Virus genome (UHGV): UHGV-0008471
Reading direction: 5' to 3' (one strand)
DNA from: a virus
Length of the DNA: 31,257 nt
The position numbers were made by a program, and so were the translations under genes. Of the stretch, positions 1-23,626 are shown piece after piece. The first letter of the stretch is position 1, and each line of letters starts with the position of its first letter. Under the pieces are notes generated by a model, which was not told the DNA's origin, did no database searches, and was given only the letters and a program-made list of their open reading frames with translations.

Positions 1-183
1 TGAATAAAACCACGAGTTCCTGGTGTGCCTTATTCGGCCTGCTAGTTCGAATTTAATTTACGGTTTTTATGTGGTTTTAGGGATAAACACAAGGATGGTG
101 TCCCCTGCAGACATCTACTTGAAGCGGCAGGGGATTGATTGGAATGGTGTTTTTTAGATGTGAAAAAAATTTTACCCGCTATT

Positions 184-384
184 TTACCCATTGGCGCGGC
201 TTAAGAGCTTATTTTTGAATTCACAATGGTCACGATATAACCATCTTGCTCGCCCGTGGATAACTTTGGCTTTAGGCAGGTCCCCGGACTTAATCCGGTC
301 ATAGATGAAGGTTTTACCGAAGCCAGTATCGGCCATGATGAATTTCAAATCAACCAGTGAATCAGGCTGTAGTTCGTGTTGCAT
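184..384 (-). CDS. xis: Excisionase / AlpA-family small DNA-binding protein (66 aa)
   Basis: ORF-track translation has a short winged-helix-like motif (TGFGKTFIYDRIKSGDLP) typical of AlpA/Xis proteins; sits at the distal end of the leftward early operon. No integrase ORF in the 183 bp to its left. Confidence 0.6.
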   Translation of the reverse strand: MQHELQPDSLVDLKFIMADTGFGKTFIYDRIKSGDLPKAKVIHGRARWLYRDHCEFKNKLLSRANG

Positions 385-427
385 GAGTGCTATCTCCGAA
401 TAGGGAATCGAACCTGCAAATCAGGCA

Positions 428-455
428 ATAAAAAACCGCCATCAGGCGGCTTGGT
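428..455 (-). terminator. Rho-independent terminator (GC hairpin plus U-tract on minus-strand transcript)
   Basis: Minus-strand RNA reads GCCGCC-UGAU-GGCGG followed by UUUUUUAUU; lies directly after the stop of the 442..609 ORF. Confidence 0.5.
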
Positions 456-609
456 GTTCTTTCAGTTCTTCAATTCGAATATTGGTTACGTCTGCATGTG
501 CTATCTGCGCCCATAGCATCCAGTGGTCATAGCAGTAATTGATGTTCTCTGCTTCGATAACTCTGTTGAATGGTTCTCCATTCCATTCACCTGTGACTCG
601 GAAGTGCAT
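442..609 (-). CDS. Small hypothetical protein (55 aa), below the ORF-track size cutoff
   Basis: Hand translation gives MHFRVTGEWNGEPFNRVIEAENINYCYDHWMLWAQIAHADVTNIRIEELKEHQAA; ATG preceded by GGAG; bracketed by hairpin terminators on both sides. Confidence 0.5.
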   Translation of the reverse strand: MHFRVTGEWNGEPFNRVIEAENINYCYDHWMLWAQIAHADVTNIRIEELKEHQAA

Positions 610-614
610 TTATC

Positions 615-645
615 ATCTCCATAAAACAAAACTCGCCGTAGCGAG
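615..645 (-). terminator. Hairpin plus U-tract terminator, minus strand (approximate coordinates)
   Basis: Perfect stem ACTCGC-CGTA-GCGAGT in the plus sequence; the minus transcript hairpin is followed by UUUUGUUUU immediately before the SD of the 442..609 ORF. Confidence 0.45.
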
Positions 646-767
646 TTCAGATAAAAGAAATCCCCGCAAGTGCGAGGATTGTTATTGTCTTTGCTTCGTG
701 CATTTGTCGCACTTTCGGCACCATCCAGATAGGCACATCCGTCCGCAATTAACACATATAGGCCACA

Positions 768-1049
768 TCATTTTTCCTCTTTTGGTTTATGAATCTGAAT
801 GGTCATGCCGCTTTGAGTGGTGACTACAATGACAGAACCAGGCTGAAGGCTGTTAAGATTGAATGCTTCGTAAAATGAATCCAATGCCAGTGCTTTTTTA
901 TTCTTTCGGTTCCACCAACGCCATCCCTTGCTACAGGCTACACTGACAATCCACTGTCCACTCCTGTAAGCCATATAAAACCAGATGAGCAAAACCTGAA
1001 GGAATGCTATCCAGTCAATAATCGTATATTTCGCGAAGGAGTACATCAC
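768..1049 (-). CDS. Small hypothetical protein (93 aa) with one predicted transmembrane helix
   Basis: Hydrophobic stretch IIDWIAFLQVLLIWFYMAY; its start overlaps the stop of the upstream gene at 1046-1049, consistent with translational coupling. Confidence 0.4.
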   Translation of the reverse strand: MMYSFAKYTIIDWIAFLQVLLIWFYMAYRSGQWIVSVACSKGWRWWNRKNKKALALDSFYEAFNLNSLQPGSVIVVTTQSGMTIQIHKPKEEK

Positions 1050-1729
1050 TTCACCTCCTGCTGTGGTGCTGCTGCAATCATCGCGCGGTATGCAGCCTGC
1101 ATGTCGTTGTCATCATCGTCTGTGTACGGAGCCGAATCCCATGCTGCACGCATATCCGGAGTAAGCTCAACCGGCACCATCACCCAACCATCCGGAATCA
1201 CCGGAGAGTTGCCATCCAGTCTACGCAAAACAGCCTTAACAGCTTCAATACGGTCATCATCAACTTTTTCTACAATATTGGAATTTAAATACTTCGAAGC
1301 GTTGCTATGCCAATCGCTGGTTTTAGGGTCTTGTCCATCCATCAAACGCCAAGCTTCAGCGATTAACTCATAGCCAGTGACAGTGGCTTCCTGCGCATCA
1401 CCAATCAGTTGTGTGATCTCTCTTTCAAGCATGCTTAGAGGGTTAGGCATTGGTTTTTCTTCCGGTACTACTGGCGCTGGAGGGGTGGCGTATACTTCAA
1501 TAATCCCATTATCAATAGGCCATTCTCCATCCTTGAGATAGTCACTTGTGCCGTCAACTTGCTGTTCAGCAATGTGGAATGCACCAACTGGCTCTGCTTC
1601 CAGCGATGCCAGAGCAATTCGTGCCAGTTCTTCCGCTTCTTCTGCTGGCAGTACAACGTTGCTACCAGGTCCGTATGTTTCGCGCCACTGCTTGATTGTC
1701 AGCAGTCGTTCTCTGGTAATAGTGCTCAT
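1046..1729 (-). CDS. Hypothetical acidic phage protein (227 aa from ATG at 1729)
   Basis: Long ORF; internal ATG at 1729 preceded by AAGGAAAG; proline-rich linker (PPAPVVPEEKPMPNP) between two acidic domains; no family recognised. Confidence 0.55.
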   Translation of the reverse strand: MSTITRERLLTIKQWRETYGPGSNVVLPAEEAEELARIALASLEAEPVGAFHIAEQQVDGTSDYLKDGEWPIDNGIIEVYATPPAPVVPEEKPMPNPLSMLEREITQLIGDAQEATVTGYELIAEAWRLMDGQDPKTSDWHSNASKYLNSNIVEKVDDDRIEAVKAVLRRLDGNSPVIPDGWVMVPVELTPDMRAAWDSAPYTDDDDNDMQAAYRAMIAAAPQQEVK

Positions 1730-1730
1730 A

Positions 1731-1949
1731 TCAGCTTTCCTTATACGGATTAATTTTATTGTGCAGTGTGTTGAACGAGGCCCATACCACGTCGTTATAC
1801 AATTCAATAACTGGCTCAATTATTTTCCCGATTGCCCAGACAAAAATTAGCGGGGATATCGGTGTCATCAACACGATAAACAGAATGAGAAACAGGAGTT
1901 CTGTTATTCGACTTCTTCGCGGATATTCTTTTCTGAATAATGTTGGCAC
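1731..1949 (-). CDS. Small hypothetical membrane protein (72 aa, GTG start)
   Basis: GTG start preceded by AAGGAGAG; single long hydrophobic segment (LLFLILFIVLMTPISPLIFVWAIG). Confidence 0.4.
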   Translation of the reverse strand: MPTLFRKEYPRRSRITELLFLILFIVLMTPISPLIFVWAIGKIIEPVIELYNDVVWASFNTLHNKINPYKES

Positions 1950-1950
1950 A

Positions 1951-2166
1951 TTACTCTCCTTTGTTGCTCCTCAAAATTTTATGCCCTGGCGCAAAAGCAC
2001 GCGTTTTGTCGGCGCTTATTCGCCACCCATCTTTACGTGCCTCTTTTGCGCAGCCAGCCCATGACGTACCGATATACTCACCGAAGTCTGGCGACTTATA
2101 TTTGCCATCTGTACACTGGAGGCAATCACAATAGAGATGCATGGTGTAACTTGCAGCGATAGCCAT
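1951..2166 (-). CDS. Small Cys-rich hypothetical protein (71 aa from ATG at 2166)
   Basis: ATG at 2166 preceded by AAGGAGAG; Cys cluster CDCLQC...C suggests a small metal-binding fold. Confidence 0.45.
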   Translation of the reverse strand: MAIAASYTMHLYCDCLQCTDGKYKSPDFGEYIGTSWAGCAKEARKDGWRISADKTRAFAPGHKILRSNKGE

Positions 2167-2167
2167 A

Positions 2168-2785
2168 TCACTCTCCTTTGATGCGAATGCCAGTGGCACG
2201 GGAATCATTCCATCGCTTTACTTCTTCACGAATTACGTCAATGCATTCTTTCGAATCCATTAGGTAATCTTCATCAAAAAGACGTTCCTGTTCGTTTTCT
2301 ATCGCAACAATGATTGCTTCAACTAACTTTTGTGCCTGAGAACCACTTTCTAACTCTGCTATGCGCTTACTTCCATCCGCGATTACTCCCTCGTAATATT
2401 CACGCTGCTCGTTGAGTTTTGATTTTGCTGCTTCAAGCTCAACTCTCAGCTTCCCTACCGTTAGCGCAATATCCTCGTTCTCCTGGTCGCGGCGTTTGAT
2501 GTATTGCTGGTTTCTTTCCCGTTCATCCAGCAGTGCCAGCACAGTAACCGGATTGGCTGCGGAGATGAATTCAGCATTGGCTTGCTGTTCCATTTGGAAA
2601 TCTTCATCGAAACCGCTTTCAGGATGCGCTCCTTCAATTCTGCAAATGGGAAGATATCCAACAACTTCACGATGAATTAGTGCATCACCAGCATCAAATC
2701 TCTCCTCTCCATATTCGAGCGACCACACACCACACGTTGCTTTTTCTGCCGCTTCACGCAGTGCCTGATAGTCAATCTTGTTCAT
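2168..2785 (-). CDS. Ead/Ea22-like protein (205 aa)
   Basis: N-terminal ALREAAEKAT...W motif and coiled-coil middle region, as recalled for the Ead/Ea22 family of lambdoid early-accessory regions. Confidence 0.6.
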   Translation of the reverse strand: MNKIDYQALREAAEKATCGVWSLEYGEERFDAGDALIHREVVGYLPICRIEGAHPESGFDEDFQMEQQANAEFISAANPVTVLALLDERERNQQYIKRRDQENEDIALTVGKLRVELEAAKSKLNEQREYYEGVIADGSKRIAELESGSQAQKLVEAIIVAIENEQERLFDEDYLMDSKECIDVIREEVKRWNDSRATGIRIKGE

Positions 2786-2786
2786 G

Positions 2787-3086
2787 TCACATCACCCTGA
2801 AGCCGTTGCATTTACGTAAGAAATCGCAGATATAGCCCTTCATTTTTTCATGCCAATCTCGATCATTCCCATTGCACCACCCATCAGGTGGAGTCCAGTT
2901 TTCTATCAGAGCAGCCATTTTCTTTGCTTTCGCCGGAGTAGCTGTTGCGGTATCGCAGTAATGACGAGTGTCAACAAACTTATCCATGCCATCGATATCA
3001 AGTACGCAAAACCATGTGTGATTCGGAATTCCTACAGGTGGTATTTGTTGCCCACGTCGGCGTTTATCAATGAGATATACACTCAC
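2787..3086 (-). CDS. Hypothetical protein (99 aa, GTG start)
   Basis: GTG start with strong AAGGAGGT SD; start overlaps upstream stop (GTGA). Confidence 0.5.
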   Translation of the reverse strand: MSVYLIDKRRRGQQIPPVGIPNHTWFCVLDIDGMDKFVDTRHYCDTATATPAKAKKMAALIENWTPPDGWCNGNDRDWHEKMKGYICDFLRKCNGFRVM

Positions 3087-3532
3087 TGGTTACCTCCTTT
3101 GCGAAGCTCTGCGGCGAACTCGTTAAGTGATATGTAGCAATCTCCAAATGTTAACGAACCGCTCGACTGCATATGCTCCATAGCCATCTCCACGCCCTGC
3201 GCCCGTACTTCAGCCAGGAAAGCATCGGTGGCTGGGGTTTCAGTAACATCATCTTCCCATTCGCTAAACTCCTCACGACAAAAGTCATTAAATTCCTTCT
3301 CAGATTGCTTAAGCGAGGTATTTTCAGCAGCCATCTTCGCGCATTTAGCCTCAAGGTTATCAATCGTGATTCCAGCAGAACGACACTCACGCAACGCCGT
3401 TTCTAGTTTTGATTCAAGTTCACCGAACTTACGCACCAGATATTCAGCGTTTGTTTCGTTAACCTTTAAATCACTTGGGATGCATTTACCTTTCAGAAAA
3501 CCATCCATCTCAATTAGTGACATTTGTTTCAT
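3083..3532 (-). CDS. Hypothetical coiled-coil protein (about 149 aa; alternative GTG start at 3550)
   Basis: ORF-track 3083..3550; the ATG at 3532 overlaps the upstream stop (ATGA); acidic, helical sequence. Confidence 0.5.
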
Positions 3533-8367: not shown

Positions 8368-9018
8368 TTATGGAAGGTTTGCTAGTTTTGCATCGACAAC
8401 TACGCCGATGATTTTGCAGTTTCCGTTGATCTCGATCATCGGATATTGTGGGTTAAGTGGTTTTAGAAACTTCCTGCCTGCATCAATAACTAACTTCTTG
8501 AAAGTTGCCTCGTTTTCTCCTTCGAGCTTTGCAACTACCAGTTTCCCGTTACGCGGCTCTACTTCAGGATCGACGAGTATTATCATTCCTTCAGGGATAC
8601 TGAGACCGGCCGGAGCCGTCATTGAGTCTCCCTTCACGTCCAACCAAAACGAATCTTCTGAACAGTCTACGGTTGTATCGTACCAGTTATCTATTGCACG
8701 CTTATGATATGGTTCTACAGCTTCCATCCAGCATCCTGCGCTCACCCAGCTAATCAGAGGGTATGACCCTCTTGGATCATGCCTACTGTGATAGGCAATG
8801 TTTGAAAGACTTTCCTCTCCTTTCATCAGATAGTCAGGGGAACACTTCAACGCATTAGCCAGGGCGAGAAGATTCTCTCCATTTGGCTCTGTCTCAGAGC
8901 GTTCCCACTGAGATATGGCAACATTAGACACGCCGACCATCTTTCCAAGTGCGGCCTGCCTGATCTTGAGTTCTTTTCTCCGAGCGCGAATGCGCTCTCC
9001 CATCAATTGAGTTTTCAT
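8368..9018 (-). CDS. cI: CI-type repressor, P22 C2-like (HTH plus S24 LexA-like autopeptidase, 216 aa)
   Basis: N-terminal HTH (QAALGKMVGVSNVAISQWER) and C-terminal S24 peptidase domain (GDSM...K); very close to P22 C2 as recalled. Confidence 0.9.
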   Translation of the reverse strand: MKTQLMGERIRARRKELKIRQAALGKMVGVSNVAISQWERSETEPNGENLLALANALKCSPDYLMKGEESLSNIAYHSRHDPRGSYPLISWVSAGCWMEAVEPYHKRAIDNWYDTTVDCSEDSFWLDVKGDSMTAPAGLSIPEGMIILVDPEVEPRNGKLVVAKLEGENEATFKKLVIDAGRKFLKPLNPQYPMIEINGNCKIIGVVVDAKLANLP

Positions 9019-9705: not shown

Positions 9706-9852
9706 ATGACAAAACAACTCAGTCCTTACCAGGACAAAATTCACAAACACATACTACGTGATCGCTTCCTGTCCAGCTTCAAGCAGCCTGGTCGATTCCG
9801 GGCTGAGTTGGAAAAAGTGAAGCTGATGCAGAAGGAGAAAGGTCATGAGTAA
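9706..9852 (+). CDS. Small hypothetical protein (48 aa) between cII-like and O-like genes
   Basis: Hand translation [48 protein letters not shown]; AGGAG SD; stop overlaps the O-like start. Confidence 0.5.
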
Positions 9853-10744
9853 CATATCTAATCTAGCCGAAGCCAGAGAGGCCAGAAGGCTACAACAACC
9901 GCATCAAAGCAGCGGTAAGGGGTATGCCTTGCTGCACCGTAAAATTATGGATGTGCCGTTTTACAAGGACGCAGAAGCTGCGCATCTGTGGGTTCACTTA
10001 ATCCTCAAAGCAAAGCATACGCCTGAGTATGTAATGACTGACGCAGGAGAAATTCTGGTAGGCAGAGGGAAGCTACTTGGCGGTAGAAACTCTCTGGCGT
10101 TTGAAACAGGACTCAAACCAGATCGCGTTCAGTACCTGCTTAGAAAGTTCAAAAAACTCGGCATGATTGACTGGGTTTCACACGGTAAATTCTCAGTTTT
10201 CTCGGTAGAGAAATATGACGATTATCAGTCAAATTTTGTACCAGCAGATTACCAGCAAATTACCACCTCAAAGCCAGCAATACCAATGCCTGCAAGCAAT
10301 ACTGTACCAGCAGATTACCAGCAAATTACCACAGATAAAGAATATAATAATATTATCTCTAATACTGACGTATTAGAGAGTACCGCAGCAGACAAAAAGT
10401 CTGACAAGAAAAAACCTTCCGTTAGCTGTCAGGATGTTGTCGATGCTTACCACGAAATCCTTCCTGAAGCGCCAAAAATCCGCGCACTGAATGATAAGCG
10501 TAAAAACCAGATCCGAACGTTCTGGCGCAAAGCCGGAGTGATAACCCGCCAGCTTGACGGGCATGGGTTCACGATGCAGGACTGGAGAAATTATTTGAGC
10601 TACGTAGGCGAAAATTGCCGATGGATGTTCGAAGAGCGCCCAAACCATCAACGCGGAACCGTCTGGCACAAAAAGGGATTTGATTTCCTGCTTAACGATA
10701 ATACCTACCTGAAAGTTCGTGAGGGTGAACACGATGACCGATAA
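9845..10744 (+). CDS. O: Replication initiation protein (lambda O / P22 gp18 type, 299 aa)
   Basis: Position after cII; contains intragenic origin iterons reflected in a duplicated peptide ([10 protein letters not shown]); basic C-terminus. Confidence 0.75.
10238..10332 (+). repeat. Origin iterons: two perfect 29-bp direct repeats inside the O-like gene
   Basis: GTACCAGCAGATTACCAGCAAATTACCAC at 10238-10266 and 10304-10332, each with two ATTACCA sub-motifs; an AT-rich stretch follows (about 10333-10375). Confidence 0.75.
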
Positions 10745-12170
10745 TTTTTATGCGCCGCCCCATAGCATCGAGGCAGAGCAGGCGGTGATTGGTGGATTGC
10801 TTCTGGATGATGACAGCAGTGAGCGCGTCCAGAAAGTTCTGGCGATGCTGAAGCCTGATTCATTTTACAGCCGATCACACAAAATCCTTTTCGAAGAAAT
10901 AACCAGAATGCACCGGGAGCAAAAGCCAGTAGATGGCCTGACGCTTTTCGATGAACTGGAGCGTAAATCGTTAACGGCGTCTGTTGGCGGTTTTGCTTAT
11001 ATCGCTGAGATCGCAAAGAACACGCCGAGCGCCGCAAACATCGTTGCCTATGCAATGCAGGTTCGCGAAACCGCAATGGAACGCTACGCCATCAACCGCA
11101 TGACTGAAGCGACGGAATTGCTCTATTCCCGCAACGGAATGACTGCGACGCAGAAGTACGAAGCTATTCAGGCGATTTTCACGCAACTGACAGACCATGC
11201 AAAAACCGGATCGCGTCGCGGCCTTCGCTCATTTGGCGAGGTCATGGAAGACTGGGTTAGCGACCTTGAGAAGCGATTTGACCCATCAGGCGAACAACGG
11301 GGAATGAGCACAGGGATCCCATCGCTGGACAGGATGCTGTCACCGAAAGGTCTGGTGAAAGGCTCTCTGTTTGTCATTGGCGCTCGCCCTAAGATGGGGA
11401 AAACGACGCTATACAGCCAGATGGCAATCAACTGCGCAGTGCATGAGAAAAAGCCCGCTCTGATGTTCAGCCTTGAAATGCCCGGTGACCAGATACTGGA
11501 AAAACTGGTAGGACAGAAGTCAGGTGTTAACCCGAATATTTTTTACCTTCCGGCGACAAATGACGCTGATGACGGCTATCAGGGTGATTACGATGGTGAC
11601 TTCAACAGGGCGATCGAAACAGCCAATCGCTTGAGTGAAATCGACCTGCTTTACATCGACGACACGCCGGGATTATCTCTGGCTCAAATCGTCAGCGAAA
11701 GCCGTCGAATCAAGCGAGAAAAAGGATGTGTTGGCATGATTCTGGTCGATTACCTGACACTAATGACCGCTGAAAAGGCCGATCGCAACGACCTTGCTTA
11801 CGGCATGATCACCAAAGGACTGAAGAACCTTGCCAAAGAGCTTGATTGCGTTGTTGTGCTTCTGACACAGCTTAACCGCGCACTGGAAAGCCGAACCAAT
11901 AAACGCCCATTACCAAGTGACTCACGAGATACAGGGCAGATTGAACAGGATTGCGATTATTGGGTGGGGATCCATCGTGAAGGTGCTTTTGATGACAGCG
12001 TTCCTCCTGGTGAAACCGAACTAATCCTTCGCCTCAATCGTCATGGCAATACCGGCACGGTGTATTGCATTCAGGCAAATGGCGCTATTTATGACACAGA
12101 CCAACAGTCTGCTGAAATGCGCCGACGTGAACGCGAGGAACCGCAGTCCAAGAAGAAAGGAGGATTCTGA
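10734..12170 (+). CDS. DnaB-family replicative helicase (P22 gp12 type, about 478 aa)
   Basis: DnaB N-terminal domain (SIEAEQAVIGGLLLD) and Walker A GARPKMGKTT; ATG at 10734 overlaps the O-like stop. Confidence 0.85.
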   Translation: MTDNFYAPPHSIEAEQAVIGGLLLDDDSSERVQKVLAMLKPDSFYSRSHKILFEEITRMHREQKPVDGLTLFDELERKSLTASVGGFAYIAEIAKNTPSAANIVAYAMQVRETAMERYAINRMTEATELLYSRNGMTATQKYEAIQAIFTQLTDHAKTGSRRGLRSFGEVMEDWVSDLEKRFDPSGEQRGMSTGIPSLDRMLSPKGLVKGSLFVIGARPKMGKTTLYSQMAINCAVHEKKPALMFSLEMPGDQILEKLVGQKSGVNPNIFYLPATNDADDGYQGDYDGDFNRAIETANRLSEIDLLYIDDTPGLSLAQIVSESRRIKREKGCVGMILVDYLTLMTAEKADRNDLAYGMITKGLKNLAKELDCVVVLLTQLNRALESRTNKRPLPSDSRDTGQIEQDCDYWVGIHREGAFDDSVPPGETELILRLNRHGNTGTVYCIQANGAIYDTDQQSAEMRRREREEPQSKKKGGF

Positions 12171-12439
12171 TGAATAAAAAACAATTAGCCATTCTCGAAA
12201 AGGCATGGGATGCACAAATATCATGCGCTTTGAAAGAACAGGCACTACCAATAATCCAGACCAAATCGAAAATAGCCAGGCAGTTATGCGATGACGGATT
12301 CCTGAACGAAGTTGAGATTACGCGCCAGATGGTAACGTTCAAAGGGTATGAGATAAATCATCATGGTATAGCGGCGTATTGCTCCCATCTTCCTGATGAC
12401 GTTGACATTGATGAAATGGAAAGGGAGATGAAGCAATGA
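12170..12439 (+). CDS. Hypothetical nin-region protein (89 aa)
   Basis: ORF starts at the helicase stop; no family recognised. Confidence 0.45.
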   Translation: MNKKQLAILEKAWDAQISCALKEQALPIIQTKSKIARQLCDDGFLNEVEITRQMVTFKGYEINHHGIAAYCSHLPDDVDIDEMEREMKQ

Positions 12440-12540
12440 CCATCTACATCACTGAGCTGATAGCAGGGTTATCGTTACTAATGGTTCTTACTGTATATAT
12501 TATTAAGTATATTCTTTATGCGAATAAAAAAACTAATTGA
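12436..12540 (+). CDS. Possible short hydrophobic peptide (34 aa)
   Basis: ATGA overlap with the upstream stop; MTIYITELIAGLSLLMVLTVYIIKYILYANKKTN; overlaps the start of the HNH gene, so may be spurious. Confidence 0.2.
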   Translation: MTIYITELIAGLSLLMVLTVYIIKYILYANKKTN

Positions 12541-13129
12541 TCACGATGAGCTTCTGTCAACATTATCATATGACTCAGAAACAGGAATATTTAAATGGCT
12601 AAAAACAAATTCAGTAGTAAGAGTAAAAGGTAGTATTGCTGGAGGTGTTAGTGGTGGTTATATATGCATTAGCATAAATAATGTTTTGTATTATGCGCAT
12701 AGACTTGCTTGGTTCTATGTATACAAAAAATGGCCTCCTAAGTTTATTGATCATGTAAATGGGAACAGACTTGACAATAGGATTTCAAATCTAAGACTGG
12801 CAACAGAGGAGCAGAATGCAAGAAACATTGTAGGGAATAGGTTAAACACATCCGGTGCGATTGGAGTGTCTTGGGATAAGACAACTGGCAGGTGGAAGTC
12901 TTATGTTGGTTATAAAAATAAGACAATATCGTTAGGGTATTTCGATAGCAAAGAAGATGCAGCATTCATAGCAGCACTAGCAAGAAAGAAACTATATGGA
13001 ACTTATGCGAGTAAAGCACTTAATTGCGAGCATGAGCTTTTATCTCAATTTAATAATGATGAGGATAAACTTGCGGAATATCTTAAGGAAAAATCTAAAA
13101 GGACTCGAAAGCGTGTTAAAAAAAGATAA
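12518..13129 (+). CDS. HNH homing endonuclease with AP2-type DNA-binding domain (203 aa)
   Basis: HNH motif IDHVNGNRLDNRISNLR and AP2-like GVSWDKTTGRWKSYVGYKNKTISLGYF; markedly AT-rich; followed by its own terminator. Confidence 0.8.
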   Translation: MRIKKLIDHDELLSTLSYDSETGIFKWLKTNSVVRVKGSIAGGVSGGYICISINNVLYYAHRLAWFYVYKKWPPKFIDHVNGNRLDNRISNLRLATEEQNARNIVGNRLNTSGAIGVSWDKTTGRWKSYVGYKNKTISLGYFDSKEDAAFIAALARKKLYGTYASKALNCEHELLSQFNNDEDKLAEYLKEKSKRTRKRVKKR

Positions 13130-13130
13130 A

Positions 13131-13160
13131 GGCCTGCTGGTAATCGCAGGCCTTTTTATT
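13131..13160 (+). terminator. Rho-independent terminator after the HNH gene
   Basis: GGCCTGC-tggtaatc-GCAGGCC followed by TTTTTATTTG. Confidence 0.7.
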
Positions 13161-13177
13161 TGGGGGAGAGGGAAGTC

Positions 13178-13618
13178 ATGAAAAAACTGACCTTTGAAAT
13201 TCGATCTCCAGCACATCAGCAAAACGCTATTCACGCAGTACAGCAAATCCTTCCAGACCCAACCAAACCAATCGTAGTAACCATTCAGGAACGTAACCGC
13301 AGCTTAGACCAAAATCGGAAACTTTGGGCTTGCCTTGGTGACGTCTCTCGCCAGGTTGAATGGCATGGTCGCTGGCTGGATGCAGAAAGCTGGAAGTGTG
13401 TGTTTACCGCAGCATTAAAGCAGCAGGACGTTGTTCCTAACCTTGCCGGGAATGGCTTTGTGGTAATAGGCCAGTCAACCAGCAGGATGCGTGTAGGCGA
13501 ATTTGCGGAGCTATTAGAGCTTATACAGGCATTCGGTACAGAGCGTGGCGTTAAGTGGTCAGACGAAGCGCGACTGGCTCTGGAGTGGAAAGCGCGATGG
13601 GGAGACAGGGCGGCATGA
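13178..13618 (+). CDS. ninB: NinB (146 aa)
   Basis: [51 protein letters not shown] matches lambda NinB as recalled. Confidence 0.85.
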
Positions 13619-19573: not shown

Positions 19574-20014
19574 ATGGCGCGCCCAACAAAGTATCAAGAG
19601 GCGTATGCCGAACAGGCACGCAAACTGTGCTTGCTGGGCTACACCGATGCAGAGCTTGCTGATTTCTTCGAAGTCAGTGAGTCAACTATTAACAAGTGGA
19701 AGCTTGATTATCCTGAGTTTTCGGAGTCCATAAAAAAGGGTAAGGCCGTCGCTGATGCAGAAGTTAGTGACCGTCTTTATCAACGCGCTATGGGCTTCGT
19801 GGCTCCAGACATCGATATTCGTGTTATTGAAAACAGAATTGTCGAAACTCCTCTTGAGAAGTATTACCCGCCTGATACAACAGCTGCCATCTTCTGGCTT
19901 AAGAACCGACAGAAGGATAAATGGCGCGACAAGGTTGATCACGAGCTAACAGGCAAAGACGGCGGCGCAATCCAGATTGAAACATCACCGATGAGTACTC
20001 TATTCGGAAAATGA
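19574..20014 (+). CDS. Terminase small subunit (146 aa)
   Basis: Directly precedes and overlaps TerL; C-terminus GKDGGAIQIETSPMSTLFGK matches Sf6-type TerS as recalled; N-terminal HTH-like DNA-binding part differs. Confidence 0.75.
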   Translation: MARPTKYQEAYAEQARKLCLLGYTDAELADFFEVSESTINKWKLDYPEFSESIKKGKAVADAEVSDRLYQRAMGFVAPDIDIRVIENRIVETPLEKYYPPDTTAAIFWLKNRQKDKWRDKVDHELTGKDGGAIQIETSPMSTLFGK

Positions 20015-21426
20015 CCTCGATTAATCCTATCTTTGAACCGTTCATTGAGGCGCATCGCTACAAAGTCGCCAAAGGCGGTCGAGGTAGCGGTAAATCATGG
20101 GCAATTGCGAGACTGCTTGTTGAAGCGGCGCGTCGGCAGCCAGTGCGTATTCTCTGCGCTCGTGAACTGCAAAACAGTATCAGCGATTCGGTAATCCGGC
20201 TGCTTGAAGACACCATAGAGCGTGAAGGGTATACGGCTGAGTTTGAAATTCAGCGTTCCATGATTCGTCATCTCGGGACGAATGCTGAGTTCATGTTCTA
20301 CGGCATCAAAAACAACCCGACGAAGATTAAATCGCTCGAAGGCATTGATATCTGCTGGGTGGAGGAAGCGGAAGCGGTAACGAAGGAATCATGGGATATC
20401 CTGATACCAACCATCCGCAAGCCATTTTCCGAAATATGGGTGAGCTTCAACCCGAAAAACATCCTCGACGATACCTATCAGCGATTCGTAGTAAACCCTC
20501 CCGATGATATTTGTCTGCTGACGGTGAACTACACCGACAACCCGCACTTTCCTGAAGTTCTCCGTCTGGAGATGGAAGAGTGTAAACGCAGAAACCCGAC
20601 ACTGTATCGTCACATCTGGCTTGGTGAGCCAGTAAGCGCAAGTGATATGGCAATCATCAAACGTGAATGGCTTGAAGCTGCAACCGATGCGCACAAGAAA
20701 CTCGGATGGAAAGCGAAAGGCGCTGTTGTCTCTGCGCATGACCCATCAGATACAGGGCCAGATGCTAAAGGTTATGCATCGCGCCACGGTTCGGTAGTTA
20801 AGCGCATTGCCGAAGGCCTGCTGATGGACATCAATGAAGGTGCTGACTGGGCTACTTCGCTGGCGATTGAAGACGGCGCTGACCATTACCTGTGGGATGG
20901 TGATGGTGTTGGTGCCGGGCTACGCAGACAGACAACGGAAGCGTTCTCCGGCAAGAAAATCACCGCCACGATGTTCAAGGGCAGCGAATCGCCATTCGAT
21001 GAAGATGCGCCGTATCAGGCCGGAGCATGGGCTGATGAAGTAGTACAGGGCGACAACGTTCGCACTATTGGCGATGTATTTCGCAATAAGCGAGCGCAAT
21101 TCTATTACGCGCTGGCTGACAGGCTGTATCTGACATATCGGGCGGTTGTTCACGGTGAGTATGCAGACCCCGACGACATGCTGAGTTTCGACAAAGAAGC
21201 GATAGGCGAGAAGATGCTGGAGAAGCTGTTTGCAGAACTGACGCAGATTCAGCGCAAATTCAATAACAACGGGAAGCTGGAGCTTATGACTAAGGTCGAA
21301 ATGAAGCAGAAGCTCGGTATTCCATCTCCTAACCTGGCTGATGCGCTGATGATGTGTATGCATTGCCCGGAGTCGGCTGCGCAACCCGACTATTCCAGTT
21401 ACTCAATTCCTTGTGGTGTAGGTTGA
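20011..21426 (+). CDS. Terminase large subunit (471 aa)
   Basis: Walker A KGGRGSGKSW near the N-terminus; C-terminal nuclease domain; closely resembles Sf6/P22-group TerL as recalled. Confidence 0.9.
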   Translation: MTSINPIFEPFIEAHRYKVAKGGRGSGKSWAIARLLVEAARRQPVRILCARELQNSISDSVIRLLEDTIEREGYTAEFEIQRSMIRHLGTNAEFMFYGIKNNPTKIKSLEGIDICWVEEAEAVTKESWDILIPTIRKPFSEIWVSFNPKNILDDTYQRFVVNPPDDICLLTVNYTDNPHFPEVLRLEMEECKRRNPTLYRHIWLGEPVSASDMAIIKREWLEAATDAHKKLGWKAKGAVVSAHDPSDTGPDAKGYASRHGSVVKRIAEGLLMDINEGADWATSLAIEDGADHYLWDGDGVGAGLRRQTTEAFSGKKITATMFKGSESPFDEDAPYQAGAWADEVVQGDNVRTIGDVFRNKRAQFYYALADRLYLTYRAVVHGEYADPDDMLSFDKEAIGEKMLEKLFAELTQIQRKFNNNGKLELMTKVEMKQKLGIPSPNLADALMMCMHCPESAAQPDYSSYSIPCGVG

Positions 21427-21427
21427 T

Positions 21428-23626
21428 ATGGCAGAAAAAAAGATGACTGACTGGCATCGCAAGGTGCTGTGCAACTTTGATAATGCCTGGTCAGCAACGC
21501 AGGATATGCGTGAGCAGATTATTGAGGCTCAACGTTTCGTCCGGGTATCCGGCGCACAGTGGGAAGGCAGCACAAACGCTGGTTACTCATTTGATGAAGG
21601 CAGGTTTGAGCATTATCCGCGCTTTGAACTGAATAAGATTGCCCGTGAATGTGATCGCATCATTGGCGAGTATCGACAGAATCGCATAAGCGTTAAATTC
21701 AGGCCGAAGGACGATAAGGCATCGGAAGCGTTAGCCGAAAAGATGAACGGCAAATTCCGCGCTGACTATCAGGAAACATCCGGTGGCGAAGCGTGTGATA
21801 ACGCATTTGATGATGCTGTAACGGGAGGATTCGGTTGTTTCCGCATGTGTGCCGATTACGAAGATGAAATGGATCCGAGTAACGAGCAGCGACGCATCAG
21901 CCTTCTTCCTGTTTACGACCCAGCGACATGCGTCTTCTTCGATCAGGACAGCAAGCAATATGACCGCTCTGATGCTATGTGGGCTATGGAAATGTTCTCC
22001 ATGACGCCCAAAGCGTTCGAGGCTGAATACCCTGATTCCATCGCGGCAAGCCTTTCTCGTGATGACACTGGCACTCAATATGACTGGTCAACGCCTGATG
22101 CTATCTATGTTGGTCGCTACTACGAAGTTCGCATAGAGAAGGTGAAGCTCACGGCGTGGCGCAACCCTGTTAGCGGAGAAACGGCAATCTATGATGAAGA
22201 GCAAATCAAAGATATTGTCGACGAGCTAACCGATGGTGCATTCGAACTGATCGGTGAGCGGACAGTGAAGAAACGCAGAGTTTATTGCGGTCTTCTGTCT
22301 GGCGCTGAATGGCTGGAAGAGCCGAAGCGTATTCCTGGCGAACATATTCCTCTCATCCCGGTATATGGGCGTCGCTCATTTGTTGATAATCAGGAGCGAA
22401 TCGAAGGCCACGCAGCAAAAGCGATGGATGCGCAGCGTCTTGAGAACCTGATGGTTTCCATGATTGCAGATAACGCTACTCAGGCTGGCGGTGATGGCAT
22501 TCCTGTAGTTGATGTTGACATGATTCCTGGTACTCTCGCCACTCATTGGGCGGAGCGAAACAAAAAGCGCCCGGCGTTCCTGCCGATGGTCAGTCTGAAA
22601 AACAAAAACGGAGATATTACAGCGCAGGCTCAGGTCAGCAGTTATACGCCTCCGACACAAATGCCTCCTGCTCTTGCCGGGCTATTACAGTACACCGGAA
22701 CGGCTATTCAGCAAATTACAGGTGCGTCGCAGCTTGAGAACATGCCGAGCAACGTCGCTACCGATACCGTTGATAGCATCTTTAACAGGATGGACACGCA
22801 GTCATATATCTACATGGACAACATGGCTAAATCCATGCGTCGCGCTGGCGTTGTGTGGCTTTCTATGGCGCGTGAAGTCTATGGCAGCGATACGCCGATG
22901 CGTATCGTTAATGAGGACGGCAGCGATGACGTGGCGCTGATGACTGGTGAAGTGGTTGACCGTCAGACAGGGCAGGTTATCGCGCTTAACGACCTTTCGC
23001 AGGGTAACTATGAAGTGACTGTCGATGTCGGTCAGTCGTTCGCTACTCGCCGTGATGCAACGGTTAAGTCGTTACTTTCCATGCTGGCACTTATCCCACC
23101 AGGAACGCCGAAGCACGACCTTGTATCGTCGATGATTCTCGACAATATGGACGGCGAAGGGATGGACGACCTGAAAGAATACAACCGCAATCAGTTGCTT
23201 CTGTCTGGAGTTATCAAGCCGAGAACGCCAGAAGAACAGCAGATGGTTGAGCAGGCGAAACAACAACAGGCCAGTCAGCCAGATCCGGCTATGGTTGCTG
23301 CGCAAGGTCAGCTTCTTGCTGGTCAGGCTGAATTGCAGAAAGCGCAGAACGAGCAGGCAGCCATTCAGGTTAAAGCATTCCAGGCACAGACTGATGCTCA
23401 GGTTGCAGCGGCAAACGTTGTGAAAATCCTCGCATCTGCTGATAGCCAGCAGAAATCTGATATCCGCGAGGCTCTGAAACTGCTCGGACAGTTCCAGCAA
23501 CAGCAAGGAGACAATGCCCGTGCTGATGCAGAGCTTGTCCTGAAAAGTCAGGCACAGGGCCATGCGCAGCGCATGGACATCAGCAGCATCCTGCAAAAAT
23601 CAACTCAGCAACAACCACAGCAGTAA
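21428..23626 (+). CDS. Portal protein (P22 gp1 type, 732 aa)
   Basis: Large protein immediately after TerL; Gln-rich helical C-terminal extension typical of P22-like portals. Confidence 0.85.
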   Translation: MAEKKMTDWHRKVLCNFDNAWSATQDMREQIIEAQRFVRVSGAQWEGSTNAGYSFDEGRFEHYPRFELNKIARECDRIIGEYRQNRISVKFRPKDDKASEALAEKMNGKFRADYQETSGGEACDNAFDDAVTGGFGCFRMCADYEDEMDPSNEQRRISLLPVYDPATCVFFDQDSKQYDRSDAMWAMEMFSMTPKAFEAEYPDSIAASLSRDDTGTQYDWSTPDAIYVGRYYEVRIEKVKLTAWRNPVSGETAIYDEEQIKDIVDELTDGAFELIGERTVKKRRVYCGLLSGAEWLEEPKRIPGEHIPLIPVYGRRSFVDNQERIEGHAAKAMDAQRLENLMVSMIADNATQAGGDGIPVVDVDMIPGTLATHWAERNKKRPAFLPMVSLKNKNGDITAQAQVSSYTPPTQMPPALAGLLQYTGTAIQQITGASQLENMPSNVATDTVDSIFNRMDTQSYIYMDNMAKSMRRAGVVWLSMAREVYGSDTPMRIVNEDGSDDVALMTGEVVDRQTGQVIALNDLSQGNYEVTVDVGQSFATRRDATVKSLLSMLALIPPGTPKHDLVSSMILDNMDGEGMDDLKEYNRNQLLLSGVIKPRTPEEQQMVEQAKQQQASQPDPAMVAAQGQLLAGQAELQKAQNEQAAIQVKAFQAQTDAQVAAANVVKILASADSQQKSDIREALKLLGQFQQQQGDNARADAELVLKSQAQGHAQRMDISSILQKSTQQQPQQ

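Follow-up and report, generated by a model that had tools for sequence, protein, structure and literature searches.

Between the replication genes and ninB of the virus genome UHGV-0008471 (31,257 nt; this whole stretch of DNA is called the window below) lies an AT-rich open reading frame (ORF) of 203 amino acids that is followed by a strong hairpin. The locus raises two questions, namely whether the gene is a mobile homing-endonuclease gene and whether the hairpin belongs to it as its own terminator, both of which had been proposed from the letters alone, with no database searches (hereafter the sequence-only reading). We find that the gene is carried by a cassette inserted inside ninA, at the 5′ foot of the lambdoid terminator tR2, and that the hairpin is tR2 itself. 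The window is a P22-like E. coli prophage, and the explanation that we favor, and consider probable, is that a compact free-standing HNH_3-AP2 homing-endonuclease gene has inserted into this prophage and spreads by homing.

The insertion site in ninA

The features on which the argument depends are the following, in window coordinates.

12170..12439, + strand: 89-amino-acid ORF (PHROG 2239, E 3e-63; function unassigned in PHROG), the true left neighbor of the element
12436..12540, + strand: 34-amino-acid ORF, chimeric NinA′
12436..12467, + strand: conserved 5′ part of ninA (from the ATG, 10 codons and 2 nt), flanking the insertion site on the left
12468..13132, + strand: inserted cassette, 665 bp, 34.0% GC
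12518..13129, + strand: predicted HNH-AP2 endonuclease ORF, 203 amino acids, ATG start
12689..12823, + strand: HNH_3 (His-Me finger) nuclease core, residues 58–102, from Pfam, the I-HmuI alignment and 45 homologues
12857..13000, + strand: AP2 DNA-binding domain, residues 114–161, from Pfam, the WRI1 match and fold matches
13130..13162, + strand: resident lambdoid terminator tR2, from phage record matches, annotation and folding
13178..13618, + strand: ninB (Orf recombination mediator; Pfam NinB E 2e-54; PHROG 72)

Alignment to related phages that are free of the insertion defines its boundaries to within ±3 nt, the 3-nt ambiguity (alternative 12465..13129) arising because AGG is present at both junctions. 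With a slash marking the junction, the empty sites of lambda, ST104, HK542 and mEpX2 read ...GAGCTAATAACAGG/CCTGCTGG... (in a longer form ATGACCATCTACATCACTGAGCTAATAACAGG/CCTGCTGGTAATCGCAGGCCTTTTTATTTGGGGGAGAGGGAAGTCATG; the empty-allele junction is also written ...ATAACAGG/CCTGCTGG...), and the occupied window reads ...GAGCTGATAGCAGG/GTTATCG...(ORF)...GATAAAGG/CCTGCTGG..., so that the 665-bp block is the sole difference between the window and these four sites at the junction. We also scored 120 sampled IMG/VR loci carrying the 5′ end of ninA by the distance from the ATG to the tR2 stem. This distance is 30 nt in 109 loci (empty) and 695 nt in three (occupied), which again gives an insert of 665 bp; seven loci have another hairpin in the same place (CUS-3 type) and one is truncated. 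Apart from this alternative-hairpin variant of ninA, no other element was found at the ninA/tR2 site among the 120 loci.

The insert consists of a 50-nt leader (22% GC), the 612-nt ORF and three further bases, and it ends 0–3 nt ahead of the tR2 stem, leaving tR2 intact. Its composition is foreign: the GC content is 34.0%, whereas the 2-kb flanks have 49.5% and 47.3%; no sliding window out of 612 reaches so low a value, and the region is the most AT-rich of the window, in agreement with the AT-richness that the sequence-only reading had pointed out. No Rfam family reaches threshold in 12100..13400. We considered an intron-encoded homing endonuclease and rejected it, as no intron RNA was detected in that interval and the insert contains nothing beyond leader, ORF and three nucleotides.

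The small ORF split by the cassette normally reads through tR2, its intact form is 26 amino acids long, and the label ninA is used for it in the Nil2 and CUS-3 records. The element had been placed in the nin region, between the helicase gene and ninB. Its right neighbor is indeed ninB, the first nin gene past tR2, but its left neighbor is the 89-amino-acid ORF and not the helicase, and the insertion, being inside ninA, lies upstream of the nin region proper.

The 5′ part of ninA is identical or nearly identical in the empty sites of lambda, ST104, HK542 and mEpX2 and in the 109 empty IMG/VR loci. Uninterrupted ninA corresponds to window positions 12436..12467 joined to 13133..13181 (in lambda, our locus L007:1568-1648); it is a hydrophobic ORF of 20–34 amino acids with tR2 inside it, it stays open in each of the ~130 loci examined, and it shows synonymous changes at codons 5 and 8. 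The CUS-3-type allele has a wholly different hairpin sequence in the same place, and there too the ORF is open and hydrophobic. In the window the ninA start overlaps the stop of the upstream 89-amino-acid ORF (ATGA). When the sites are aligned, the upstream genes, unrelated as they are, each end in a Shine-Dalgarno-like motif at the right distance from the ninA ATG, and the translation start of NinA has been placed 30 bp upstream of lambda tR2 (Li et al., 2015; PMC4824070). The Shine-Dalgarno-like spacing and the ribosome-profiling citation in PMC4824070 together support ninA as a real translated ORF.

This also accounts for a possible gene for a 34-amino-acid hydrophobic peptide that the sequence-only reading had noted at the start of the nuclease gene. 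The ORF exists, and it overlaps the HNH start by 23 nt, but it does not stand for a separate peptide gene; it is what is left of ninA once insert sequence has taken the place of its 3′ part. Codons 1–10 of this NinA′ come from ninA, codon 11 spans the junction, and the other 23 codons come from the insert. Lambda-type, CUS-3-type and chimeric NinA are all short and hydrophobic. The 3′ part of NinA′ stays open this far in 0.13 of shuffles, which is not significant, and we claim no selection on it. A programmed frameshift at the A7 run (12527..12533) that would join NinA′ to the HNH protein was also considered and rejected, as the HNH ORF is in the +1 frame and the heptamer is unsuitable.

The hairpin and tR2

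That a strong hairpin follows the ORF is borne out: a 10-bp stem (13128..13155) is followed by a T run (z = −3.95). The stem of tR2 itself is formed by AGGCCTGC (13130-13137) and GCAGGCCT (13146-13153) around the loop TGGTAATC, followed by TTTTTATTT; the last bases of the insert lengthen it by two A-U pairs, from 13128, and the HNH ORF's stop codon (TAA, 13127..13129) abuts it. Folding energies are −17.4 to −18 kcal/mol for the occupied allele and −15.4 to −16.3 kcal/mol for empty sites, thus the hairpin of the occupied allele folds at least as well. A generic terminator scan is by itself at chance (2 found against 1.7 expected), and we identify the hairpin as a terminator because it is conserved across phages.

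When 12436..13165 was used as the query in a search of phage records, 376 records matched, 357 of them only over the last 40 bases (13126..13165). This segment is annotated as ‘tR2 terminator’ in Nil2, Lahn1, Nil3 and Lahn2; the annotated tR2 of Nil2 (L010:1206-1237) coincides with an exact 34-nt match, and the identical 34 nt are found in lambda between ren and ninB, and the terminator is the one that Li et al. (2015; PMC4824070) employ under the name ‘lambda tR2’. Since the same segment is annotated as tR2, and is present in cassette-free phages including lambda, it is part of the phage backbone. The hairpin (13130..13162) is tR2, every empty site has it, and the claim that the element brought its own terminator has to be given up.

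An AT-rich gene followed by a strong hairpin is also what one would expect of a moron, that is, a self-contained transcription unit that brings both promoter and terminator. The terminator is the phage's, the insert stops short of the stem, and a promoter scan found no promoter-like site on the + strand within 12436..13130; we therefore rejected this explanation, which is hardly probable at all.

Two further properties of the occupied allele concern tR2. The insert ends in an A-rich run, AAAAAAAGATAAA (window 13119..13155, minus strand view), because of which the occupied-allele tR2 also scores as a minus-strand terminator followed by ATCTTTTTTT; the empty alleles have no such T run. The second property is the position of tR2 relative to coding sequence. 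It has been reported that tR2 is almost fully repressed if a translated gene stops a few bp upstream, and that it works well when placed early inside a coding region (Li et al., PMC4824070). The empty allele has tR2 30 nt into ninA, whereas the occupied allele has the HNH stop codon against the stem. Provided that ribosomes translate the HNH ORF efficiently, more N-independent read-through into the nin genes could result from the insertion.

The predicted endonuclease and its distribution

The HNH motif and the AP2-type domain that had been read from the translation are both recovered by profile searches. Pfam HNH_3 (PF13392) matches residues 58–102 over the full profile (1–46) with 57.8 bits against a cut-off of 24.8, and the ORF matches PHROG 99, ‘HNH endonuclease’, at E 3e-72; an NCBIfam scan of the nuclease gave no hit. 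Pfam AP2 (PF00847) matches residues 114–161 with 32.6 bits (E 1e-7), just under its cut-off of 33.3. There is a precomputed PF00847 hit on P0001, the cluster representative of the 203-amino-acid protein, and the AP2 repeats of WRI1 match the protein at E 0.0015.

The catalytic residues are kept. D78, H79, N87, N91 and N100 align with D74, H75, N83, N87 and N96 of I-HmuI (PDB 1u3e), the D78-H79 codons being at 12749..12754. Among 45 homologues of 38–60% identity, D78, H79, N87, N91 and N103 are invariant, and N100 is at least 90% conserved. An AlphaFold (AF2) model built on the alignment of these homologues has a mean predicted local distance difference test score (pLDDT) of 88.8. It matches 1u3e with a probability of 1.00 over 109 columns, with a template-modeling (TM) score of 0.35–0.40 that is low because the C-terminal domains differ, and this match indicates a beta-beta-alpha-metal fold in the predicted structure. 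The AP2 half of the model, with strands at 117–120, 125–132 and 135–142 and a helix at 145–163, supports the AP2 assignment: it superposes on the plant AP2 protein TEM1 (7et5, 7et4) with a root-mean-square deviation (rmsd) of 1.1–1.2 Å (for 7et5, 1.2 Å over 48 columns, probability 1.00) and on AtERF1 (1gcc) with 1.4 Å. Beyond the AP2 domain a basic helical tail runs to residue 203, and this extra basic C-terminal helix (residues about 170–203) is missing from most homologues. The cluster is isolated, with identities of 99% within it, a single sequence next at 62% and at most 54% thereafter; residues 120 and 122, Y and P in most copies, are D120/T122 in the window variant.

Proteins that combine HNH with AP2 are recognised as a family of homing endonucleases (Jablonska et al., 2017, PMC5714182; Barth et al., 2023, PMC10448857). 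By these profile and model comparisons the 203-amino-acid ORF is a free-standing HNH-AP2 gene of homing-endonuclease type, with its predicted catalytic residues intact. HNH proteins are also common packaging components in phages (cited in PMC12315714), and a terminase-associated HNH protein for DNA packaging, of the HK97 gp74 type, might be considered. The gene lies 6.9 kb upstream of the large terminase and portal genes and not next to them, HNH_3 with AP2 is a homing-type architecture, and CUS-3 and HK620, which with phiv205-1 and Kapi1 are the closest relatives of the window prophage, are without the cassette. We rejected this explanation by position and family, and give it practically no credence.

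The gene is not ancestral and syntenic everywhere; its presence and absence among related phages are precise and sporadic. The full cassette is found in 19 of the 376 phage records with the tR2 segment (~5%), among them HK022, PA28, 06-3462, 1717, Stx2a_WGPS4/6, F349, SH2026Stx1 and phi330. It is also found in 126 of 5,426 complete E. coli genomes; the query has matches in 1,781 E. coli genomes (2,559 places), and among the matches listed those without the cassette are the short tR2 segment. Exact 40-nt scans found the cassette in 28 IMG/VR contigs and in one of 185,579 species-representative genomes (one genome per species), that of E. coli.

We examined 36 cassette loci, including two copies with ISEc8 and one recombinant without tR2, and in all 36 the site is ninA/tR2. 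These loci represent at least 8 upstream and at least 8 downstream sequence contexts, and the cassettes are 98.4–100% identical although the 300-bp flanks are only 23–32% identical, which is the random level. The gene upstream is helicase P in HK022, Ren in PA28 and a DnaB analogue in WGPS4; in the window it is the 89-amino-acid ORF after the DnaB helicase, and in E. coli 2014EL-1343-2 the same ORF after a toprim primase, with a cassette that is 100% identical. Variant cassettes have about six synonymous and five or six non-synonymous differences. All copies in the loci examined are intact save one, and one or two further E. coli copies look indel-bearing (731-bp match length or split annotation). 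The one frameshifted copy (L142, IMGVR_UViG_648276659_000002) has A8 for A7 at window 12527..12533, which puts the nuclease out of frame after 6 codons; this is either a decaying copy or a sequencing error.

What we found is a precise presence/absence polymorphism at one site among related genomes, with the same site occupied amid unrelated genes, the latter being also compatible with recombination at a conserved linker. Foreign composition, minimal size, a single site in a highly conserved target and sporadic occupancy are what one expects of a free-standing homing-endonuclease gene; so are near-identity across unrelated contexts and a catalytic centre that is predicted to be intact. From the sequence we infer a homing activity, in which the predicted endonuclease would cleave the empty allele and bias inheritance. 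We suggest that the early-right (replication) transcript from pR includes the cassette as its final gene, upstream of tR2, and that the HNH ORF is translated weakly, perhaps coupled to the overlapping chimeric NinA′ ORF; weak translation is assumed because no Shine-Dalgarno sequence is found upstream of the ORF. The AP2 domain and the basic tail would recognise the uninterrupted ninA/tR2 of a co-resident lambdoid genome, the His-Me finger (D78, H79, N100) would nick or cut nearby, and recombinational repair from the cassette-bearing genome would copy the cassette in. The carrier itself would be immune because the insertion splits the site, and the window holds no uninterrupted copy of the target sequence.

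Several points weigh against spread by homing. The AP2 score is 0.7 bits short of the curated Pfam cut-off, and expression of the HNH ORF is uncertain because of the missing Shine-Dalgarno sequence. Among the phage records searched, Salmonella phages with an identical empty site did not show the cassette, which may reflect ecology or low activity. Literature searches found no description of the gene, of its site, or of cleavage, nicking or biased inheritance by this protein or close relatives. Finally, ninA/tR2 is a short conserved linker between mosaic modules, and homologous recombination on either side of it could spread one ancestral insertion.

This last point leads to the explanation that the cassette is a passive passenger, i.e., one ancient foreign HNH-AP2 insertion that became linked to the ninA/tR2 linker and has been shuffled with it by Red, Erf or RecA recombination, the nuclease being inactive or not targeting the site. 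As ninA/tR2 is conserved between unrelated modules in hundreds of phages, crossovers there are expected, and an occupancy of only about 5% would fit as well. The cassette haplotypes are also linked to variants in the left flank, as co-inheritance would give: CTG stands at 12457-12459 beside the window-type cassette, and CTA beside the others, and G12463, 5 nt left of the junction, is present in every cassette locus that keeps this flank and in one of the 109 empty alleles. This linkage fits either tight co-conversion or simple co-inheritance. On the other hand, in several contexts the homology beside the insert amounts to no more than 32 nt (left) and about 45 nt (right), little length for double exchange to be frequent; nearly all copies have an intact ORF, the balance of synonymous and non-synonymous differences suggests that the protein is maintained, and the catalytic residues are all retained. 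We consider a passive passenger unlikely. The single empty allele with G12463 (L044, IMGVR_UViG_648276656_000002, 1679-1760) is the only empty site among the 109 with the left flank GAGCTGATAGCAGG, which otherwise accompanies the window-type cassette; it could be either the ancestral target allele or the product of precise loss.

The location in the early-right operon, beside the recombination genes ninB (13178), YbcO (15079) and RusA (15366), could instead suggest that the nuclease is kept for the benefit of the phage, cutting rival lambdoid genomes (exclusion) or aiding recombination together with NinB, RusA and YbcO, with no copying of itself, and sporadic lambdoid HNH genes have been treated as possible functional module members (PMC12315714). 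But the sporadic distribution, the foreign GC content and the single precise site are those of a mobile insertion, and 95% of related phages are without the cassette. A defence system was rejected as a candidate, the only defence-family match being a weak PADLOC ‘homing endonuclease’ model. We find a benefit of this kind quite improbable.

Some of the loci have undergone further rearrangement. In Stx2 phage 1717 (L003:59-2500) and in L158, ISEc8 with an 8-bp target duplication, GGTTATCG, sits at the cassette's left end (window ~12467..12474) and separates the HNH gene from the upstream ninA start and from pR transcription. A lambdoid contig (L012:4919-5520; Logan SRR10380363_203) carries a chimeric HNH-AP2 gene (P0004, 62% identity), counterpart of window 12436..12695. 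The contig is near-identical to the window at the left junction, in the NinA′ ORF and over the first ~58 codons of the gene, after which the gene becomes a different, higher-GC HNH-AP2 gene whose end overlaps rusA; the contig is without tR2 and ninB, and rusA directly follows the chimeric gene. This looks like recombination of two paralogous nuclease genes that deleted the nin genes up to rusA, and no match to the second parent was found in the phage or E. coli collections. Stx2-converting phage 86 has a different HNH endonuclease, gp72, between ninB and dam (L009:3262-3864), with 31% identity over the nuclease core; the ninB-dam interval is a second nuclease-gene site in lambdoid nin regions. 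The 89-amino-acid ORF is itself optional: it is present in the window, ST104 (orf30), mEpX2 (mEpX2_050), Stx2-86 (gp68) and E. coli 2014EL-1343-2, and absent from HK022 and HK542, in both of which it is the stop of the helicase gene that overlaps the start of ninA. The remaining genes of the window that give the order around the cassette are listed here.

8368..9018, − strand: cI-type repressor
9845..10744, + strand: O-like initiator
10719..12170, + strand: DnaB-type helicase
from 14357, + strand: Roi/Ant
from 15079, + strand: YbcO
from 15366, + strand: RusA
from 15910, + strand: Q
20011..21426, + strand: large terminase TerL
21428..23626, + strand: P22-type portal

Comparison with known systems

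As a gene, the one described here is of little importance. The cassette entered GenBank with the HK022 genome, and an HNH or homing endonuclease is named in several records: it is a ‘putative endonuclease’ in HK022, a ‘homing endonuclease’ in PA28, a ‘putative HNH endonuclease’ in 1717 and an ‘HNH endonuclease’ in RefSeq (WP_021561742.1). It is thus already deposited and labelled, and is a member of a known family and not a new kind or variant. What we add is the target to the nucleotide, namely ninA at the foot of tR2, together with the correction concerning the terminator and the survey of contexts. The element borrows the terminator of the phage and, as we infer, its transcription, and it occupies one site in many module contexts. 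For annotation, the locus is a reminder that an inserted gene does not necessarily own the strong hairpin that follows it. As HK022 is occupied and lambda and HK97-type phages are empty, it offers a clean test system for homing in temperate lambdoid phages, and it opens the questions of whether homing nucleases have a part in forming the boundaries between modules in lambdoid mosaic genomes and whether an upstream ORF that ends at tR2 changes read-through into the nin region.

Few short segments of lambdoid early-right operons are as conserved as the ninA/tR2 linker, and ribosomes suppress tR2 (PMC4824070). One could speculate that the cassette is specifically adapted to this linker, and that its breaks drive the mosaic junction between the replication and nin modules, the chimeric gene next to rusA being one example; we regard this as doubtful. 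Entry at the foot of tR2, the stem rebuilt and lengthened by the last bases of the insert, and its own stop codon set against the hairpin may all be parts of such an adaptation, and the insert may supply a new hydrophobic C-terminus for NinA.

The closest known systems are the carriers of the cassette. HK022 (HK022_57 / NP_597900), PA28, 1717, Stx2a_WGPS4/6 and SH2026Stx1 are 98.2–100% identical to the window in DNA over 12436..13165 and have the same ninA/tR2 site and the same ORF length. They differ from the window in the neighbors, which are helicase P, Ren, a DnaB analogue or a toprim primase with orf89 upstream, and various genes downstream.

HNH-AP2 homing endonucleases are described in phages, cyanobacteria and protists, as cited from Magnani et al. 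(2004) in PMC10448857 and PMC5714182. With this family the window gene shares the N-terminal HNH_3 and C-terminal AP2 domains, the free-standing state and the sporadic presence in phage genomes. It differs in belonging to a lineage without a relative above 62% identity and in its extra basic C-terminal helix, and its site is a terminator-containing micro-ORF and not a large conserved gene. I-HmuI, the intron-encoded nicking homing endonuclease of Bacillus phage SPO1, shares the His-Me core (D78, H79 and N100 corresponding to D74, H75 and N96), at 19% identity and with a marginal sequence match (E 0.39); it has other C-terminal DNA-binding modules, whereas the window gene is free-standing, has AP2 and is accompanied by no detected intron RNA. 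The Seg and Mob nucleases of T4, and the nucleases of Barth et al. (2023), are like the window cassette in being intron-less cassettes between genes or at their ends, at exchange boundaries. Unlike T4 Seg and Mob, the window cassette belongs to temperate lambdoid phages, lacks its own promoter and is situated at a terminator inside a 26-amino-acid ORF.

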